Of a stretch of 64,000 nucleotides of DNA, positions 14,301 through 36,157 are shown piece after piece. Each line of letters starts with the position of its first letter. Within the stretch, counting starts at the first letter, position 1. Both the position numbers and the translations under genes were made by a program. Origin of the DNA: Alphaproteobacteria bacterium (lineage in GTDB: Bacteria; Pseudomonadota; Alphaproteobacteria; MPNO01; UBA830); the NCBI GenBank assembly GCA_964291215.2, contig OZ219790.1:2016001-2080000 (forward strand). The letters are read 5' to 3'. The notes beneath the pieces were generated by a model, which saw only the letters and a program-made list of their open reading frames with translations, was not told the DNA's origin and made no database searches.

Positions 14301-15995
14301 AAATTCTGTTTGATTTTTCCAGACAGTACTTGGGTATAGCGGAGGCGCGGGTTGGTGCGGGAGATTTTTTGCAGTTTTCGCTGGCTTTCCTGTACTGAAG
14401 TTGTCATGGTGCGGGGATGTCGGTTCACAAGTACATCGCATCCTGTCCGATTCACGTCGCAGCTCCGGAAGGGTCTGTCCGAGGTTTGCGAAGCCCGAGG
14501 AGCGTCCGCTGCGTTGATGGACGACTATCTCGGGTTTCGCCGTCTGGCGGGGCTGCGCCATATTGCGTTCTTCAGGGGGCAGTGGTCTGGCGGCGTGACG
14601 GTGCCTTCAAGTGCCGCGACCGGTGGATCGGCTGGAAGTAGGAGCAGGAGTGGCTTGATCTGATAGCGAACAACACGCGACTGCTGGTGCGTGCGGCGCC
14701 GGGAACGTTTCCGAACCTTGCCTCCTTCTTTCTTGCGACGCGGCGGCTGGCCGACGACTGGGCCTGCGGCCACCAGGTGGCGGAGACGTTCTGCGATCCG
14801 GCGCGTTTTGCGGGCACCCTGTACAAGGCGGCGGGCTGGCGTGCGCCGGACCAAGGGGTTTGCCCGCGCCAACGGGCGCTGCACCGACCCCCATGGCAAG
14901 GAGATTTTCGTTTTGCCGCTGCGGCGCGACGGCTGCTGTCGCGCCGCAGGCACTGCCGGGCGCCGCCTGCCTCCTCGCTCCCCGGGGTTCCGAGGTGATG
15001 CGTTCGCTGCACGACGAGTTGGCGGCGATCGAGGACTTCCGCCGCGCAGAAAGCACACGGTGTGCTCACGTTCTCGCCGAGCTTGCGAACATGAAAGGCT
15101 GCCTCGCAGCTGCGCAGTTTGCGCGGTCGCTGTCCCGAGACGAGCTCGAGGCCATCGGCGGAACCCGAGGACGGGGCTGCGCGAGCCGCTCCTCCAGGGC
15201 GACCCTCCACCGGGTCGTCCGGTCGGTCGACCCCGAGGCGCTTGAGAACATGCTCGGCCGCCATGGCAGGCGCCGGCTCGCCCGGGCGCTTGCCGCCGAC
15301 GGCAAGCGCATCCGCGACGCCAACCGCAACGGCCACCACGAGACCGTGGCCCTCACGCCTCCGCGCCCCCTTCGCGCTGTTGAACTTCGACGACGGCGAG
15401 TTGGCGGCCACCTCCTCGAGCGCACCGATGTTCGCGGCAAGGTGATCACCCGCACGACGCCGGCGACGCTGATCACCCGGCGCTGCGGCGCAGACTATGT
15501 CTTCCCGGTCAAAGGCAATACGCCCGAAACCTTCGACGGCATCGACTGGGAGACAGATGCCAGCGGTTGCTTCAAAGAAGCAAGGCCCACGGACGCCTCG
15601 AGCAGCGCTCGATACGTGCCGCTCAAGGGCTTGATCAACTACCCCGGCAGATCGCCCGCATCAAGCGCTACCGCAAGCCGCCGGGAAAGAGCGCCAGCGG
15701 CGCAGCGAGCGGCAACGACTGCACCGGTACATCATCACCTCACCGCACGAACGCTTACGTACCGCCAGCCGTGCGCAACTCTCGACACCGGGTCGGTTCA
15801 CGGCAACCACGCGATCAATATACGGCCGCATTCCAGGACCGATAGTACCAAACTGCCGATGCTCTCTCCAAATCGGGGATATCGCCCACACGTAGCGGGC
15901 TTCCGTTTGCGGCAGGCGCGGCTATAACACTGGCTGACGCCAGCCGGACCGAAAAAGCTCTCGCTTTCGATGCCACGCCGTGTCATATTGCCGGC

Positions 15996-18783: not shown

Positions 18784-19323
18784 CATCTCGTCCTGTCCGA
18801 TTCACGTCGCAGATCCGGAAGGGTCTGTCCGAGGTTGAGGTTCGCGAAGCCTGAGGAGCGTCCGCTGCGGGATGCGTTGATGGACGACTATCTCGGGTTT
18901 CGCCGTCTGGCGGAGCTGCGCCATATTGCATCTTTCAGGGGGCAGTGGCCTAGCGGCGTGACGGGGCCTTCAAGTGCCGCGACCCAGGGTGATCTTACGC
19001 TAAATTCTGTCTGATTTTTCAAGACAGTACCTGGGCTTTGCGGAGGCGCGGGTTGGTGCGGGAGATTTTTTTACAGTTTTCGCTGACTTTCCTGCACTGA
19101 AGTTGTCATGGTGCGGGGATGTCGGTTCACAAGCACATCGCATCCTGTCCGATTCACGTCGCAGCTCTGGAAGGGTCTGTCCGAGCATCCATGTTTCTTG
19201 GCAAGGTTTTTGCGGGTGTCTGTGGTGATGTTTTCTGTGGTTGTCCACAAGCGGTGTGGGGTTTGCTCTGCGAGCGAGGCGACATGAAGCTTGTGGTCCC
19301 GGCGGCGGGTTGCCGTCCATTGG

Positions 19324-19500
19324 TCACGTGAACGCGGCTACCTTGCCGTCCCCGGGCATGGTAACGTGACCGTCCGGGTTCCAGGTGTCCCAAGGCGGTT
19401 CGATCTCCTTGATGTCGACCTCGACGATGATCTGCAGACATTCTCCCCAAGTCGTGTCGGAGACTGTCGAGACAGTCCCGATCGCGCTCTCGGCAGGGCC
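19324..19500 (-). pseudogene. Small acidic accessory ORF in the IS110 right end
   Basis: AESAIGTV...DTTWGECLQIIVEVDIKEIEPPWDTWNPDGHVTMPGDGKVAAFT*; homolog in copy B with GGAG-ATG at about 31368. Confidence 0.45.
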
Positions 19501-20246
19501 GTGTCTCCTTCGCTCACTCACCGGTGCTTCAGGCAACGCTGCTGTCGCAGCAAGGTGTTCGCCAGAGCTTGCGCATCACGGCGACAATCGCGACTTTGTG
19601 GGCCTTGCCGGCAGTCTTGAGGCGCACCAGGTCCGCGTTGAAGCGTGCCGGTTGCGGCCATGAACAGGAGATCGCGTGGCCTTCGGCGCCCGCCACGGAT
19701 GTGCCGAGCACCGTGGTCGTTGGCGCCACCCCGATCAAGGCTGCCGACGCTGCCGAGTTCGGGCATCCAGCAAAGAAGGGCCGCGGCGGTCACCGGATCG
19801 AGGTCAGGATGGCATACCTCTGCTTGGGATCACCGGCGATCACCGCTTTGATCGCCGCGCCGGCAATGCGATCATCGAGATCGGCCGCCGAGGCCCTTGT
19901 GACGGTCTCGCCATCCTCCTCATCTGCCACCTGCCTGGCGTCGACAAGCGCGGCACCAGGAGATCCTCCAGGCTCTTGAGGAAGGCGGAGCCACAGGCTC
20001 AAGATCGCCCAGCCGATCTTGGCGTCGACGCGGTTGGCCCATCGCCTCGGCGAAGCCCGCAACGGGTTGACGAGAATAACCTCGAAGCCCCGGTCATGAA
20101 GACACTGGTAAACCTTGCGGTGATAGCGGCCTGTCGCCCACTACCCGGCTCACCCCGAGGCCGCGAAGCCACCTGCCCGTGGCGTCGTTCGCAAAACAAT
20201 GCGCCAGATGTCCAGACTGGCTGACCCTTGCTACTATCTTGACCAT

Positions 20247-20420
20247 CGTCCCTTGCTCCTCGCCTTACGATGATACGGGTTCAAACCCAAGTATCCAGCG
20301 AGGGACGTCAAGGGAGGTTGCCACACTCGGACACGGCCCTGTCAAGGTCGAAACGGCAACCTCCGCGGAGATCGTTTGACCCCCTGTGCGTGTTCGCTCA
20401 GGGGAGCGGAATCTCTCTGC
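20247..20420 (-). ncRNA. IS110 bridge RNA, copy A
   Basis: Stem GGAGGTTGCC (20313-22) / GGCAACCTCC (20355-64) encloses CTCGGACA and AGGTCGAAA matching the flanks of copy A; donor loop closed by CGTCCCT/AGGGACG. Confidence 0.8.
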
Positions 20421-22119
20421 AACCATAGCTCTCCCACAGATCCACATTTTCCCGCCCCCAACTGCTGTGGATGATTTCATCATCAAGGGGACAAAACCTG
20501 GTCATATAAGGTTGAGGTTCGCGAAGCCTGAGGAGCGTCCGCTGCGTTGATGGACGACTATCTCGGGTTTCGCCGTCTGGCGGGGCTGCGCTATATTGCG
20601 TCCTTCAGGGGGCAGTGGCTGGCGGCGTGACGGGGCCTTCAAGTGCCGCGACTGGTGGATTGGCTGGAAGCCGGAGCAGCAGGGCTTGATCTGACAACAC
20701 GCGACTGCTTGCGGCGCCGGGAACGTTTTCGAACCTTGCCTCCTTCTTTCTTGCGACGCGGCGGCTGGCCGACGATTGGGCCTACGGCCACCAAGTGGCG
20801 GAGACGTTCTGCGATCCGGCGCGTTTTGCGGGCACAAGGCGGCGGGCTGGCGTGCCAAGGGGTTTGCCCGCGGGCGCTACACCGACCCCCATGGCAAGGA
20901 GATTTTCGTTGTGCGGCGCGACGGCTGCTGTCGCAGGCGCTGCGGTAGCGCCGCTTGCCTCCTCGCTCCCCGGGGTTCCGAGGTGATGCGTTCGCTGCGC
21001 GAAGAGTTGGCGGCGATCGAGGACTTCCGCCGCGCAGGAAGCACACGGTGTGCTCACGTTCTCGCCGAGCTTGCGAACATGAAAGGCTGCCTCGCAGCTG
21101 CGCAGTTTGCGCGGTCGCTGTCTCAGGACGAGCTCGAGGCCATCGGCGGAACCCGAGGACGGAGCTGCGCGAGCCGCCCTCCAAGGCGACCCTCCACCGG
21201 GCAGTCGATCGACCCCGAGGCGCTCGAGGATGTACTCGGCCGCGGGCTCGCCCGGGCGCTTGCCGCCGACGGCAAGCGCATCCGCGGCGCTAACCGCAAC
21301 GGCCACCACGAGACCGTGGCTCTCACGCCTCCGGCGCACCCTTCGCGCTGTTGAATTTCGACGACGGTGAGCTGGCGGCCACCTCCTCGAGCGCACCGAT
21401 GTCCGCGGCAAGGTGACCACCCGCACGACGCCGGCGGCGCTGATCACCCGGCGCTGCGGCGCAGACCATGTCTTCTCGGTCAAAGGCAATGCGCCCGAAA
21501 CCTTCGACATCCTCGACGGCATCGACTGGGAGCCAGCGGCCGCTTCAAGGAAGAGTAAGGCCCGCCTCGAGCAGCGCGTGCCGCTCAAGGGCTTGATCAA
21601 CTACCCCGGCCAGATCGCCCGCATCAAGCGCTACCGCGAGCCGCTGGGAAAGAGCGCCAACGGCGCAGCGAGCAGCAACGACTGTACATCATCACCTCGC
21701 TCGATGCGCAACACGCGTCGCCAGAGGAACTGCTGCGGCCGCGGGCTGTGGAAAACATGAACCATCGAGACTGCGTCTTCGGCGAAGACGCCTGCCTGAC
21801 ACGCAAACCGCGCCAGCCTCAACAACATCGCGCTCGCGGTGATCTTCGCCAACCGACGCGAGAGCCTCGCCGAAACACGGCGGCGGCTCGACCGCCGAGA
21901 AGCCGTCGCAGCTCTGATTCGGCCCTGAGCGCCAATGGCGTCCGGCCGATTTTCGGATGCCGCCCACAACCCGCCTACATCCCGAAAACAACCCGCCCAC
22001 GCGCCGGCAACGCCGCCGGCGACGACCGTGGACGGCCCCGAAGCCAGAAAACCCGGCAGGTTGTACAACCTGCCTCCATCAGCAGTCGACAAGATCGAAT
22101 GCAGCGTGAGAAAGTCCTG

Positions 22120-29233: not shown

Positions 29234-30315
29234 ATGACGACAGGCATAACTTGGGCCGGGACGTCCGGCGACGACACCAAAGTCGGCAGCGACGGCGACG
29301 ACGCGCTGTATGGCGGCACGGGCGACGACACCCTTACCGGCAGCGCGGGGGATGACACGCTCTACGGCGGCGAAGGCGACGACTTTCTGTTCAGCCGCGA
29401 CGAAGACGACACGTTCGTGTTCAGGGCCGGAGACGGCGACGACATCATTGGCTGGTTCCAGAACGGCGACATCATCAAGTTCGACGGTGTGCCCGGGGTG
29501 AGCGAGTTCAGCGATCTGACGGTGGAGGAATCTGATGTTACCAACAGCGATGGTGAAAAGACCGGCGCCAAAGTCGTCATCACCTAACGGGGCCGGCCGG
29601 GACACGATCACGCTGAACGGCCTGGGCATGGGGGATATCGGCTCGGCAGACTTCGCGTTTGCGGACACCTCGGGCAAGGCGGCGCGGGCGACGACACCCT
29701 CACCGGCGGCACGGGCAATGACACGTTCGTGTTCAAGGCCGGGGACGGCAACGACACGATCACCGATTTCCAGGATGGCGACAAGATCAAGTTCGACAGC
29801 GTGCCCGGGGTGGACGATTTCGAAGATCTGACGATGCAGCAAGATGGCGACGATGTCGTCATCACCTACGGCGCCGGCGGGGACCAGGAAACGATCACGC
29901 TGACAGGCGCAGACATCGGGAATATCGGCTCGACAGACTTTACGATTGCGGCGAGGGCGACGACACGCTGTATGGCGGCGCCGGCAATGACATTCTGAAC
30001 GGAGGCGCCGGCCACGACAGGCTCAATGGCGGCGCGGGCAACGATACGCTGACGGGCGGCGACGGCGACGACTGGCTCCAGGGTGGCACCGGCAACGACA
30101 CCTTCCTCTACAACGGAATGGGCAATGACACCATCTCGGACTTCGCTGCGGGGGACACCATCGCGTTGAGGAACATTGATGGGGTCACCGCGTTCGGCGA
30201 CATCACCGTTGATTCCACGGAAGGCGGCTTCGAGATCACCTTCGGTGACGGCAACGCCCTGACCGTCACGTCCAGCCTGCAGGCACTCGAAGCCGAACAC
30301 TTCGACTTCCTGTGA
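29234..30315 (+). pseudogene. RTX/hemolysin-type calcium-binding repeat protein, inactivated
   Basis: GGxGxDxLx nonapeptides ([18 protein letters not shown]), G.D.I.DF motifs, C-terminal HFDFL; stop at 29585 and frameshifts. Confidence 0.78.
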
Positions 30316-30526
30316 TGCGTTTCGCGCGCAGAGCCGCCACCGCGGCCCTGCGTTGCGTCCCGAAGGCAAAGTTGTGCGCGCCCGAGGGGAAGACGCGCAG
30401 GAGCAGGCCGGGGATGGTATCATCATGGATGTCGGTCGTAGCGCTTCTCGCGCGGTCTGACGACGTGAACGCACCGTGCGACGGTGGACTTCGGATTGTC
30501 GCCCATAGTTGGCGGCTCCTGTCTAG

Positions 30527-30965
30527 TCCGAAGTTCCAGATGATTTCCTGCTGATCTTCACAACAACTCGCTGATTTTGCGCTATTTGTCGGATTCGTCG
30601 GGCTTCACAGTGTACCCATGTACGAATGCACCTTGTGCTTGACATATGTCTGTGGTGCGCCTATGCACGGTAGCCATGTACATCAAAGCCCTCCTCAACC
30701 GATCCCCTCCACCCGCCATCCTGCTCCGCGAGCCCCCGGCGCGAAGTCGGAAAGGTCAAGAAGCGCACCATCACCCGCAACACCGTGACGCTCCACCTTG
30801 CGGGCGCCGGGCCCTTCCAGGTCACTACGCGACCCACGCCGCTCCAGAGAAGAGCACTCAAACTCCTCGGCGTAAAGCCGTAGTGTACCCAGTCAGACGC
30901 CTCTGAGATCCATCGAATGTCATTCATATCAGATACTTGCGCCTGATCGGCCCTAGAACTTCGGA
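30527..30965 (+). mobile_element. IS1634-like internal deletion derivative (MITE)
   Basis: TIR TCCGAAGTTC(C/T)AG at both ends; keeps N-term MYIKALLNRSPPPAILLRE and the C-terminus of 44435-46240. Confidence 0.72.
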
Positions 30966-31385
30966 TGAAAGGCTGTCTCGCAGCTGCGCAGTTTGCGCGG
31001 TCTCTGTCCCGGGACGAGCTCGAGGCCATCGGCGGAACCCGAGCATCCATGTTTCCTGGCAAGGTTTTTGCGGGTGTCTGCGGTGATGTTTTCTGTGGTT
31101 GTCCACAAGCGGTGTGGGATTTGCCCTGCGATCGAGGCGACATGAAGCTTGTGGTCCCGGCGGCGGGTTGCCGTCCATTGGTCACGTGAACGCGGCTACC
31201 TTGCCGCCCCCGGGCACGTGACCGTCCGGGTTCCAGGTGTCCCAAGGCGGTTCGATCTCCTCGATGTCGGCCTCGACGATGATCTGCAGACATTCTCCCC
31301 AAGTCGTGTCGTAGTAGGGAGACTGTCGATACAGTCCCGATCGCGCTCTCGGCAGGGGTGAGGGCCATGAGGGTGTCTCCTTCGC

Positions 31386-32212
31386 TCACTCACCGTGCCG
31401 GTGCTTCGGTCGACCAGCAACGCTGCTGTCGCAGCAAGGTGTTCGCCAGAGCTTGCGCATCACGGCGACAATGGCGACTTTGTGGGCCTTGCCGGCGGTC
31501 TTGTGGCGCACCAGATCCGCGTTGAAGCGTGCTGCCGAGGTCGCGGCCATGAACAGGAGATCACGTGGCCTCCGGCGCCCGCCTCGGATATGCCGAGCAC
31601 CGTGGCCACTGTCGTTGGCCATCGGCGCCACCCCGATCAAGGCTGCCGACGCTGCCGAGTTCGGGCATCCAACAAAGAAGGGCTGCGGCGGTCACTGGAC
31701 CGGGGATCGAGGTCAGGGTACCTCTGCTCGGGATCACCGGCGATCACCGCTTTGATCGCCGCGCCGGCAATGCGGTCATCGAGATCGGCCGCCGAAGCCC
31801 TTGTGACGGTCTCGCCATCCACCTCATCTGCCACTTGCCTCAACTTGGTCCGCACGTCGACAAGCGCGGCGCGCGATACCAGGAGATCCCCCAGGCAGTT
31901 GAGGAAGGCTTCCTGAGGAGCCACAGGCTCGAGATCGCCGAGCACCGTGCCGATCTTGGCCAGCGCGTCAACGCGGTTGGCCAGATGGCCCAAAGCCTCG
32001 GCGAAGCCCTCAACGGGCAGGACAACCTCGAAGCCCCGGTCATGAAGACACTGGTGAACCTTGCGGTGATAGCGGCCTGTCGCCCACCACACGGGTTACC
32101 TCGAGGCTGCGAAGCCACGTGCCCAGTGCCCGCCAGCTCGTGGCGTCGTTCGTAAAACGACGCCCCAGATGTCCAGACTGGCCTTGCTGACCCCTGCTAC
32201 TACCTTGACCAT
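31386..32212 (-). pseudogene. IS110 DEDD recombinase, frameshifted
   Basis: MVKVVAG-VSK (catalytic GID aspartate deleted), AK.D-type region, GVAPMANDSG catalytic Ser, IRGGR, AGKAHKVAIVAVMRKL. Confidence 0.85.
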
Positions 32213-32400
32213 CGTTCCTCGCCTTATGATGATACGGTTCAAACCCAAGCATCCATTCAGGACGCAAGGGACGCCAAAGGAGGTTGCCACGCTCGGGAAC
32301 GGCTCTATAAAGCCAAGGACGGAACGGCAACCTCCGCGGAGATCGTTTGATCCCCGCTCCCCTGTACGTTCTCACACAGGGGAGCGGAATCTCTTTGCAA
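32213..32400 (-). ncRNA. IS110 bridge RNA, copy B
   Basis: 5' hairpin CCGCTCCCCTGT/ACAGGGGAGCGG (32354-87); target loop 32279-32335 with CTCGGG and AGGACGGAA; donor loop with AGCATCCAT (32248-56) and CTTAT (32223-27). Confidence 0.85.
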
Positions 32401-33321
32401 CCATAGCTCTCCCATAGTCGAGGTTATCCACATTTTCCCGCCCCCAACTGCTGTGGATGATTTCATCATCAAGGGGACAAAACCTAGTCATATAAGGACG
32501 GAGCTGCGCGAGCCGCCCTCCGGGGCGGCCCTCCACCGGGTCGTCCGGTCGATCGACCCCGAGGCGCTCGAGGACATGCTCGGCCGCCGGCTCGCCCGGG
32601 CGCTTGCCGCCGACGGCAAGCGCATCCGCGGCGCCAACCGCAACGGCCACCACGAGACCGTGGCCCTTGTCGACCACGCCTCCGGCGCACCCTTCGCGCT
32701 GTTGAACTTCGACGACGGCGAGCCGGCGGCCACGCACGACCTCCTCAAGCGCACCGATGTCCGCGGCAAGGTGATCACCCTCGACGCGCTGCACACGACG
32801 CGCAAGACGGCGACGCTGATCACCCGGCGCTGCGGCGCAGACCACATCTTCCCGGTCAAAGGGAATGCGCCCGCAACCTTCGACACCCTCGACGGCATCG
32901 ACCGGGAGGCGAATGCCACCGGCCGCTTCAAGGAGGCAAGGCCCGCCTCGAGCAGCGCTCGATACGTGCCGATCGAGGACCTGATCAACTACCCCGGCGT
33001 CAGCCGGATCGCCCGCATCAAGCGCTACCGCAAGCCGCCGGAAAAGAGCGCCAGCGGCGCAGCGAGCGGCAACAACCACACCGGTACATCATCACCTCGC
33101 TCGATGCGCAACACGCGTCGCCAGAGGAACTGCTGCGGCTCGATCGCGGGCACCGGGCCGTGGAAAACATGAACCACCGAGACTGCGTCTTCGGCGAGGA
33201 CGCCTGCCTGACCCGCACCGGCCCCACAAACCGCGCCAGCCTCGACAACATCGCGCTCGCGGTGATCTTCGCCAACCGACGCGAGAGCCTCGCCGAAATC
33301 CCGCCGTTTTATGCAACCGAC

Positions 33322-34829
33322 GTATCTACTCACCCCTAGTTGGGTTCTGATTGGTCGTAGTGCTCGTTGATGATGTCTGCGGCTTTTCCGTCGAGGGCGA
33401 TCTGGGTGGCGACGAGTGGGTTGTAGCCGAGTGCGGCCATGGAGGTGAGGTAGCTTGAGCCCCGGCACCATGCTTTTGCGTGGAGCGGAAGCATCCGGAC
33501 ACCTTGACCTTTGCCATCCTGATCTTCTGTTCTCCGGCATTGTTGGTGAAGCTGACGTCGGGGTTGTCTATGAAGCGCAGGTTTTCGTGTTTCACGAGAC
33601 GTTCGTGCAGGTTGTGCGCGTCGGACTTGCGTCCACGTTTTCCTTTCGGCGGGATGTCGGGCAGTTCCCTGGCGCCCTGATGGTGCGGTAGCGCTCGCGC
33701 CCGGCGTCGTTCAGGGTTTTGGATGCGCTCTTGTTGACCTTGTGGCAGGGAGCAGGCTCTTCATCAGTCGCGCGGTAGCCTCGACGACAAAGATCAGTTC
33801 GCGCAGCAGGTGGCTGCCGCACAACTGGTGGCTACACTGGCCCATGTACGAGGCCCAGGACGCCCTTGTAGCACGGGCCGATCTCTTGCCTCCCGGCCGC
33901 GCTTGCGGTGCGGGAACTTGCACGTCAGCGTCCCACGACATGAAGCCACTTACTGTTGATCCGAAATCGTCGACATCGGGCGTTGCAGGAGGTGCGCCAC
34001 GGCGGCCTCCTCCCATGACGCATCGTGAAAGCATAGCTGAGGCAGGTTGCCTCGGAGAGCTTGATGCCGGAGATCGCCTGCACGAACGCGACGGCGCAGG
34101 GACAGCATTTGGGCGACCAGCAGGTTGATAACGAGGGCCTGGATGCCGATGCCGTACTGCACGGGATGTTGTCGGGGAACCGGCCCCGGGCCTTGCACTT
34201 CGGGCATTCCTTGATCTCGGCGCGGCGCTCGACGACCTCGAACACGATGTCGTGCGGCGCTCCCGATCGACGGGGCCGTCGATGTCGGCGCCGCAGGCGT
34301 CGCAGGCCGCGACCGTCTCCTCGACGATGATCTTGCGCAGGTTGTCGCCCATCTGCCGGTTCGGCTTCGGGCCCTTGCCGTTGCTCCCGGCACGCTCTTG
34401 TCCGTCTGTGACGGCGGCAGACCGGAGTTCCGGCTCGTGCGTGGTCTTCTCCAGAAGGACGACGATGAAGATGTCGAGCAGGATGACGAGGACGCGGATG
34501 ACGGCCTCTTCCGCCACCTTGCCGGCAGCGCCGCGGTCTTGGCCGCTTCGAACTCCTCGCGCGCCGCCCGTCGCCATCACCCGGCCTTGCGCTTCATCAG
34601 CGCGCCGCTTCCGAGATGCGTTTCCACATACAGATCATGCGGGGGCTGGAGCCCCGGAAGCAGCTGGCACAGCCCGCTCGTCGCCTTCGATCCAAAGTAG
34701 CCCACTGGCGGTCCCCGTCGTTCTCGATTACCACCACTAAACGAATCGGCCTGCAGTGTCAAATCTCCACGAAAACCCGTTCGTTGCTCTACCCCGACAT
34801 CAAGCCGGAACCAGGGGGTGAGCAGTTAC
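33322..34829 (-). mobile_element. IS66 deletion derivative
   Basis: TIRs present; perfect 8-bp TSD CAACCGAC. Confidence 0.88.
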
Positions 34830-35020
34830 CAACCGACAGCAGCCAAAGCCAGAAAACCCGGCAGGGTTGGGCCTGTGAAACCTCCGGGCAGCAGAAGACA
34901 AGAAAATTGAATGCAGCGTGGGAAAGGCTTGGCTGGCACGCAAGCGCCGGTTGTTGCAAGCAGACCTTAATGACAAGATGGCCCGGACGGTCGGAAAAAG
35001 GAAACGATGGGCTGCATTTC

Positions 35021-36157
35021 ATGGAGCAGAGGCCGGTCCGCGACAACCCGCTCTACAACCAGAACCGGATGAAGATCGGTATCATCGCCATGAACTGCAG
35101 CCACGGGTCGACGATCACCACCGCCGACAATTCGTGGGAGATGACTTGGCCGGACACCCGCGAGGTCTCGGTGATGGCGGATCGCGCGGGTTTCGAGATC
35201 CTTCTGCCGGTTGCCCGGTGGCGCGGCTATGGCGGCGAGACGAACTTCAACAACCGCACCTTCGAGACCTACAACTGGGCCGCAGGCGTGGCTGCTGTCA
35301 CCGACTATTCCTGCATCTTCTCGACCTCGCACGTCCCGCTCACGCACCCGGTCGCCGCAGCCAAGCAGTGCGCGACGATCGACCATATCTCCGGCGGGCG
35401 CTTTGCGCTCAACGTCGTCTGTGGATGGTTTAAGAACGAATTCGAGATGTTTAACGCCGAATGGCGCGAGCACGATGTCCGTTACGAATACGCGACCGAA
35501 TGGCTCGACCTGGTACGGCGGATATGGACCGAGGAGAACGAGTTCGATTTCGAGGGCCGCTGGTTTACCTCGCGGAATATCTGGAGCCAGCCCAAGCCGA
35601 TCCAGAAACCCATGCCCCCCGTGATGAATGCCGGCGGCTCGCAGGCCGGCCAGAAATTCGCCGCCACGCAGGCGGACATGAACTTCGTCATTCTCAAGCA
35701 GCGGGACATCGAAGGTGGCCGGACGCAGATCCGCAAGCTGAAGGACATGGCGCGCGAGGCCGGCCGCGAGGTCCAGAGCTGGATTCACGTCTATGTCGTC
35801 TGCCGTGAGACCGAGAAGGAAGCCCGCGACTACCTCAATCATTATGTCGTGGAGCGTGGCGACTATGTCGCCGTGAACAACCTGCTCAAGATCTTCGGCA
35901 TGCAGTCGGAGACCCTGCCACCGGATGTCCTCGATGAATTCCGCTTCCACTTCATTGCCGGGCATGGCGGCTACCCGCTGGTCGGCACGGCGGAACAGAT
36001 CGTCGACGAGATCGACACGCTGGTCAGGATCGGCGTCGATGGGATCCTGATTTCCTGGGTCGACTACAAAACCGAATGCCGCCAGTGGATCGACGAGGTC
36101 ATGCCGCTGATGGAACAAGCCGGCCAGCGTCGGCCATTCGAAGCGACGGGCGGCTGA
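35021..36157 (+). CDS. LLM-class flavin-dependent monooxygenase
   Basis: ADRAGFEILLPVARWRGYGG, HPVAAAKQCATIDHISGGRFALNVVCGW, MNAGGS, PLVGTAEQIVD. Confidence 0.9.
   Translation: MEQRPVRDNPLYNQNRMKIGIIAMNCSHGSTITTADNSWEMTWPDTREVSVMADRAGFEILLPVARWRGYGGETNFNNRTFETYNWAAGVAAVTDYSCIFSTSHVPLTHPVAAAKQCATIDHISGGRFALNVVCGWFKNEFEMFNAEWREHDVRYEYATEWLDLVRRIWTEENEFDFEGRWFTSRNIWSQPKPIQKPMPPVMNAGGSQAGQKFAATQADMNFVILKQRDIEGGRTQIRKLKDMAREAGREVQSWIHVYVVCRETEKEARDYLNHYVVERGDYVAVNNLLKIFGMQSETLPPDVLDEFRFHFIAGHGGYPLVGTAEQIVDEIDTLVRIGVDGILISWVDYKTECRQWIDEVMPLMEQAGQRRPFEATGG

Follow-up and report, generated by a model that had tools for sequence, protein, structure and literature searches.

The window, a 64,000-nucleotide stretch of contig OZ219790.1 from an alphaproteobacterium, contains a broken IS110-family element, and this locus raises the question of whether the non-coding end of such an element encodes guides that match both its insertion site and its own ends, as the initial annotation had claimed. 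The element occupies positions 31042-32496 on the minus strand, with a CT core at each end (left core, 32495-32496; right core, 31042-31043; both on the minus strand). Read on this strand, it is preceded by the left target (LT, CTCCGTC, 32497-32503), in which guide covariation is confined to the inner 5 nt, and followed by the right target (RT, CGGGTTC, 31035-31041). The left end begins with the right donor (RD, TATAT, 32490-32494) and the right end closes with the left donor (LD, ATGGATG, 31044-31050). The target CTCCGTC-CT-CGGGT and the donor ATGGATG-CT-TATAT were both confirmed at the ends where they had been read.

Three observations fix the boundaries. The right flank has 30 matches in the genome, of which 29 are empty sister sites; the empty joint 31041/32495 is present in assembled contigs of three of four sequencing runs; and the alignment of an intact host ORF covers 30965-31042 (residues 303-328) and resumes at 32495-32992 (residues 331-504). 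They bear out the exact boundaries, the CT dinucleotide on both sides and the absence of terminal inverted repeats that had been proposed, and together with the lack of a target duplication, the short core at both junctions and the clean empty site they carry the hallmarks of the IS110 family. The guides lie upstream of the gene and the sub-terminal repeat is only 2-3 bp, which are traits of the IS110 rather than the IS1111 group. This repeat (CAT/ATG) is invariant and straddles the junction of the joined ends. The element interrupts an ISAs1-type transposase on the plus strand, of which an upstream piece (30965-31041, placed by alignment to the intact host ORF) and a decayed downstream piece (32497-33336; NF033564, E 4.3e-14, below the cut-off) remain.

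The surroundings are rich in similar debris. At about 19200-20512 on the minus strand, a further copy of the element lies inside a different copy of this host; it is more decayed and carries another guide pair. By eye, we take the N-terminal region of the host ISAs1-type transposase (L108:789-2300; window 14315-15642) to be DruA-like; Pfam DruA domains flank the relative sites L021, L054 and L055. Among the IS remnants there are also, judging by motif, what we take to be a broken RTX-like repeat protein (29234-30315, plus strand) and an apparently intact luciferase-like monooxygenase (34616-36157, plus strand). The genome has a marker completeness of 99%, and about 27-28% of it is repeated DNA.

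The recombinase gene of the window copy (31390-32212, minus strand) is a frameshifted pseudogene that has lost the equivalents of D9, E51 and D93 and kept D96 and the catalytic serine. The copy had been called dead on the grounds of frameshifts and a lost aspartate; the decay is greater than that, as deletions have removed three residues of the DEDD set and one arm of the donor-loop stem, and the copy is dead. None of the 58 near-full copies in the genome has a complete recombinase frame, and a genome-wide tblastn search returned no intact recombinase in the assembly. An intact natural member of the window's own lineage is P0132 (316 aa), which scores 210 bits against NF033542 (cut-off 140) and matches IS621 at E 2.4e-27 with all five catalytic residues aligned; the window copy matches the intact lineage at 65-78% over its pieces. 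Another intact recombinase, of 315 aa, is encoded with the same RNA scaffold at L003 in a same-genus genome. The L003 protein contains PF01548 (DEDD RuvC-like) and PF02371 (Tnp, conserved Ser). To judge from the matches of P0132, the intact recombinase of the lineage is an IS110 DEDD enzyme.

Assembly error is disfavored as the source of the deletions, since contigs from runs X1-X3, which share one study and of which one may be the source sample, reproduce the window pieces exactly across the deletions and carry further indels; the deletions look real. An origin of all deletions at short repeats holds only in part: 11 of 36 events have at least 3 nt of overlap, compared with about 6% at random, and 21 of 36 have 0-1 nt, counts that depend on the alignment. 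Repeats throughout the genome, element copies and host IS alike, are riddled with 5-14-nt deletions that are shared among copies in a mosaic fashion, and some are nearly fixed, such as a 6-nt deletion in the target stem found in 63 of 64 copies. This mosaic, near-fixed distribution suggests deletion-biased conversion.

The predicted RNA is read on the minus strand from the left end of the element. Folding places a 12-bp 5' hairpin at 32354-32387, and relatives show two-sided changes at 7 of 13 pairs there. A second small hairpin (32336-32357) overlaps it here and is separate in relatives, where this second helix is 90.6% paired with no two-sided change. The target-loop stem follows, with its 5' arm at 32326-32335 and its 3' arm at 32279-32288, respectively 6 and 5 nt shorter than in relatives. 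It encloses the left target guide (LTG, UUCCGUC-CU, 32316-32324), a mini-hairpin supported by the fold and by the alignment of relatives (32301-32314), the right target guide (RTG, 32292-32298), which is the complement of CT-CGGGA where the site here reads CT-CGGGT, and a handshake dinucleotide CG (32290-32291) whose predicted partner is T6-G7 of the donor, a concept taken from the IS621 report (PMC11208158). In the donor loop, the 5' arm of the outer stem (32264-32272) has lost its partner to a deletion at 32216. The loop holds the left donor guide (LDG, AUGGAUG-CU, 32248-32256), the right donor guide (RDG, the complement of CT-TAT, 32223-32227) and a handshake dinucleotide GC (32221-32222), the first base of which tracks target position 7.

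The 12-bp hairpin, the 10-bp stem, the mini-hairpin and all four guides were thus found at the places given by the initial annotation, with some amendments. Its three-part layout stands for the 5' hairpin and both loops, but it missed the hairpin at 32336-32357, and the donor-loop outer stem is broken. The 9-nt LTG is where it was read, but its first two letters show no covariation with the target. The RTG is indeed the complement of the core plus right target, but extends over the core plus 5 nt with a mismatch at right-target position 5. The 10-bp target stem is itself a shortened form, as a longer stem occurs in relatives and in 1 of 64 genome copies. The 6-nt and 5-nt losses fall on opposite arms and together leave a perfect 10-bp stem; both are present in all 19 copies of the window guide family and are possibly a compensatory pair. 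By eye, contigs of runs X1 and X3 appear to carry the long stem. The outer stem of the donor loop retains its 3' arm in 37 of 58 aligned copies, but not in the window copy.

Folding of the 201-nt left-end region gave z = -4.09, and the region beat all 200 shuffled sequences. When the 282-nt left end was shuffled 20000 times with its dinucleotides preserved, the four guide matches never recurred in order; the patterns for this test had been picked after being seen. Rfam returned no match up to E 1 across 30500-33100. Among 23 relatives, 96.3% of 892 stem cells are paired, a value reached by none of 500 shuffles and compared with at most 49% in slid controls; as this alignment also served to derive the structure, the test is biased in its favor. 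Changes on both sides were seen for 10 of 39 pairs, mostly in the 5' hairpin, the stems keep G-U pairs, and the donor-loop stem is 100% paired. A 5' hairpin, a target loop and a donor loop with conserved stems, as expected of a bridge RNA, are therefore all present.

Copies of the element are numerous in the same genome. BLAST returned 66 left-end and 74 right-end matches, and 60 left ends could be paired with a right end, one pairing being excluded from flank counts as it spans a nested IS. There are about 65 decayed copies sharing one donor (ATGGATG-CT-TATAT) and displaying 20 LTG/RTG combinations, the latter counted from the 64 of 66 left ends with a readable target loop. Right ends almost all finish in ATGGATG-CT, and left ends start with TATATG, TGTATG or TACATG. 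Outside this genome, a DNA search of 40 relatives yielded the element as one short match in the same-genus genome, two further matches being attributable to chance. With L003 we retrieved 79 loci from genomes and 13 from metagenomes, most of them under the titles of Paracoccaceae, Amylibacter and Rhodobacter MAGs. Parsing of the target loop succeeded for 69 of the 92, leaving out 23 that are truncated, rearranged or too distant, and all 69 have the same RNA scaffold.

If the loops are guides, their sequences should follow the flanks from copy to copy. Covariation was scored on unique guide/flank pairs as matches of 7 against 5000 shuffles. For the genome copies the left side gave 4.04 matches versus 3.14 when shuffled (24 pairs) and the right side 4.68 versus 3.72 (25 pairs); for relatives the values were 4.14 versus 2.53 on the left (36 pairs) and 4.73 versus 2.49 on the right (30 pairs). 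In all six covariation tests none of the 5000 shuffles reached the observed value, and the proposal that the loops track their flanks across genome copies and relatives passed; copies and relatives are kin, hence the statistics are not independent. When a single flank was drawn per distinct guide in relatives (22 left and 18 right guides), 0 of 300 shuffles reached the observed match in 40 of 40 draws. The same treatment left a weak signal on the right side in the genome (median p 0.005, worst draw 0.09). Some copies fit their own site poorly, matching it at no more than 6 of 10 positions: 5 of 45 in the genome and 8 of 51 among relatives. Local copying cannot account for the match of the RTG, which is separated from the right flank by more than 1 kb.

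The signal resides in LTG positions 3-7 and RTG positions 1-5 and is lacking at LTG 1-2 and RTG 6-7, whether or not wobble pairs are counted. Wobble pairing as a rescue for LTG 1-2 was rejected in relatives, and these positions are fixed in the window genome. Both guides covary with the target flanks and include the core, as bridge-RNA target guides do, and the pattern points to a working site of about 5+CT+5 rather than the 7+CT+2 of natural IS621; for identifying the positions that are read, a mismatch screen would carry more weight than natural covariation.

On the donor side, the second loop had been described as holding a stretch 9/9 identical to the left donor plus core, and the complement of CTTAT, and both were confirmed. 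The LDG is nearly invariant, with one mismatched clade (L060 type), which is why covariation cannot be shown for it. The RDG does vary, and across 62 relative loci it follows the donor: CTCGC accompanies CGT in 37 loci and CGC in 13, CTTGC accompanies TGT in 8, and 4 loci have other combinations. With the CTTAT guide, which goes with the TAT donor, the RDG follows the donor across three lineages. The fit is looser in the window genome, where CTTGT guides occur with TAT donors in three copies and CTCAT guides fit no donor exactly. The handshake base of the donor loop is concordant with the target in 57 of 62 relative loci (G/C 52, A/T 5), the exceptions being A/C in 4 and G/G in 1. In the window genome, the sole copy at a T site has A, and one copy with A has C. 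The same pattern, with position 7 of the opposite DNA, is reported for IS621 (PMC11208158).

Joining the ends in silico creates TTGCCA-17-TATGAC in the window copy, from a -35 hexamer (TTGCCA, 31057-31062) and a -10 hexamer (TATGAC, 32487-32492), both on the minus strand. The same layout appears in 20 distinct relative junctions listed, and the -10 reads TATGTT, TATGCT or TATGAT in most relatives. A sigma70-like promoter is therefore predicted to form across the joined ends. No circle junction was found in the assembly or among those listed for contigs of four runs; with contigs dropping rare forms and no intact enzyme found, this does not speak against a circle. Other IS elements have repeatedly inserted close to the start of the left end, within its first 12-30 nt (examples are C1:2246183, C2:178904, C2:868416, C2:742251 and C1:1705011), several of them at a CTAG overlapping the -10 box, where they would separate the junction promoter from the RNA. 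At C2:3385609 the left flank of the window copy is combined with the right flank of another site, a rearrangement between copies.

The guide of the window copy points to CCGTC-CT-CGGGA. Counting from the 45 copies in which both flanks could be read, 13 of the 17 perfect 12-mers genome-wide are filled and 4 are empty; among one-mismatch 12-mers 2 are filled, both with mismatches at outer positions, and 98 are empty. The 12-mer at which the window copy sits, a secondary target with one mismatch, is filled in 1 of 28 cases and empty in 27. Within the main host element, 14 filled copies stand beside 10 empty ones, of which 9 carry a mismatch, a contrast that shared descent may inflate. Copy-and-paste and half-match insertion have been reported (10.64898/2026.08.31.748434) and would fit the high copy number and the poorly matched sites.

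Each guide does not always fit its own site best. Own-site matches of 9-10 of 10 positions are found in 26 of 45 copies, and in 19 of 45 the guide of another copy fits the site better. Better-fitting foreign guides together with one shared donor suggest insertion in trans; recombination or conversion between copies would give the same picture. Most site classes fall in repeated DNA, with ISAs1 and ISNCY hosts identified by NCBIfam and further hosts that, from their translations, we take to be IS1634-, IS630- and IS4-like. The 28 distinct sites of relatives have transposase-type domains at the junction in 16 cases, other genes in 4 and no match in 8, a distribution confounded by selection against gene disruption. 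Two relatives, L018 and L060, are inserted in or beside another IS110 recombinase gene. Throughout, copy counts overstate independent events, as the copies are kin and host elements may be copied with their insert.

The right end of the window copy is long only because of a passenger ORF; in relatives this end measures about 200 nt. The remnant (31235-31368, minus strand, lower end approximate) derives from a 96-aa ORF of no known family with 1256 homologues, intact ones including P0121 and P0004, and an all-helical predicted model (pLDDT 86). It has no precomputed Pfam match and no NCBIfam match better than E 0.005, only hypothetical clusters in the Atlas, no plasmid match, no viral contig, and no Foldseek match at E 0.001 in the viral and PDB libraries. 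In many copies from G314 (loci L115-L134) a homologue follows a distant IS110-like gene. By motif, another follows what we take to be an IS21 istB (L136:576-878, G456), and one at L113:777-1034 lies near a presumably IS3-like piece. An IS110-specific accessory role was rejected, given the absence of any match in the 92 relative loci and the homologues beside these IS21- and IS3-like genes; the distribution marks the ORF as a putative general IS passenger.

Taken together, we consider it very likely that this decayed IS621-type element, whose guides track its flanks, moved as an RNA-guided bridge recombinase. The covariation and the family matches of P0132 support the IS621-type layout put forward at the outset, and the distance from IS621 (E 2.4e-27) and the donor ATGGATG-CT-TATAT agree with its view of a separate orthologue. 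In the cycle that we envisage, the two ends would be linked through the CT core to give a circle, the promoter built by joining would drive transcription of the left end, and the recombinase would bind the resulting RNA. The target loop would pair with some 5 nt to either side of the core, the LTG with the bottom and the RTG with the top strand, and the donor loop with ATGGATG-CT-TAT; after strand exchange the handshake bases would pair with position 7 of the opposite DNA. The window copy would have landed at its one-mismatch site and later lost its enzyme and part of its RNA. As one donor is common to all copies, RNA from any of them could in principle serve to insert any circle, and the genome therefore likely held a pool of guides, most of them aimed at other insertion sequences.

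Three other explanations have to be weighed against this one. Short seekRNAs are reported to support movement of ISEc21 (PMC11187229), and the target loop alone might likewise work as a short processed RNA, with the donor-like loop dispensable and the ends recognized with the help of flanking target DNA. The invariance of the left donor guide, whose role is thereby beyond the reach of covariation, and the damaged donor loops of many genome copies are compatible with this. We nevertheless judge it very unlikely, because the RDG changes with the donor, and the handshake base of the donor loop with target position 7, each in three lineages, and because the donor-loop stem is fully paired in the 23 relatives. 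Still less probable is that the matches are read as DNA, by a single-stranded end in the manner of IS200/IS605, or are left-overs of copied flanks, with no RNA involved. DNA and RNA folding are indistinguishable from sequence alone, but the order, strands, core overlap, handshake and junction promoter match the IS621 RNA layout, the stems keep G-U pairs, and the enzyme is a DEDD/serine recombinase, not an HUH enzyme.

The covariation could also reflect shared descent, each guide type having inserted once and then been copied with its host IS. Three sites do hold most copies (21, 13 and 10 occupied), the most complete host copy at the main site of the window guide carries a mismatching allele, and the relatives come from few genomes. 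Such copying would explain copy numbers but not the letter-by-letter match of 22 left and 18 right guides to their own flanks. Host deletions are moreover common to filled and empty copies, and the filled hosts appear unlike one clone. For guide-flank matching this explanation appears largely refuted, and we give it as slim a chance as a DNA-based reading. Returning to the bridge recombinase, a bolder extension is possible, which we hold tentatively and would not yet favor: the lineage may be a bridge recombinase with a symmetric 5+CT+5 reading frame which, within one genome, diversified a single-donor element into a shared guide pool aimed at other IS transposase genes and cross-mobilizing copies in trans. 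Filled and empty sites would then be a record of retargeting and per-position tolerance, and unrelated IS families may have the 96-aa passenger in common as a helper.

In a clade far from IS621, the lineage cleanly and independently confirms the rules of bridge RNAs, covering both target guides, the donor guide, the handshake and the junction promoter. Its intact natural orthologues (P0132; L013, L014, L030 and others) give tool screens access to a new donor and to a right guide that is long by nature, and the single-genome guide pool bears on the natural retargeting of bridge guides. None of the papers that our literature searches listed concerned the window lineage or a guide pool within one genome; IS110 catalogues in supplements may already include the clade. 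Among known systems, IS4321/IS5075 of the IS1111 group reportedly land in the inverted repeats of Tn21 and so resemble the present element in being IS110-family elements that enter another mobile element. They are said to differ in having a right-end RNA and long sub-terminal repeats, and in targeting transposon ends, not transposase coding regions.

The seekRNA elements ISEc21 and ISMch6 share the upstream non-coding RNA of the IS110 group and natural redirection via few guide changes, but belong to a clade with longer enzymes (345-385 aa), and the report describes one natural example of redirection (PMC11187229) versus the 20 guide combinations in the window genome. ISCro4/IS622 (PDB 9T56) has the same architecture, and its 7-nt RTG pairing, in a 14-nt recognition model, resembles the long RTG of the window lineage; it is reported as active in human cells (10.1101/2025.05.14.653916), whereas the window lineage is known from sequence. 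It matches at E 7.3e-24 and has a different donor.

The closest parallel is with IS621 as described in PMC11208160 and PMC11208158 (PDB 8WT6-9): an IS110-group DEDD and Tnp enzyme of about 315 aa; a left-end RNA with a 5' hairpin, a target loop and a donor loop; a CT core; LTG and LDG as copies of the top strand, with RTG and RDG as complements; a handshake; a junction promoter; and a short sub-terminal repeat. The mechanism is already published and thousands of bridge orthologues have been predicted in the same way (PMC11208160), so the gain here is incremental. In contrast to IS621, with its distant enzyme and different donor, the window lineage has an additional small hairpin, begins its first hairpin about 100 nt after the predicted -10 box, inserts mostly into other IS elements instead of REP, and carries a passenger ORF in its right end, with all copies in the window's assembly broken. 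According to the same account, IS621 reads 7+CT+2 and all nine positions matter, whereas the window lineage covaries over 5+CT+5. Since IS621 prefers matches at all nine of these positions and longer natural RTGs have been reported (PMC11208160), it is only the short left side that may be new.
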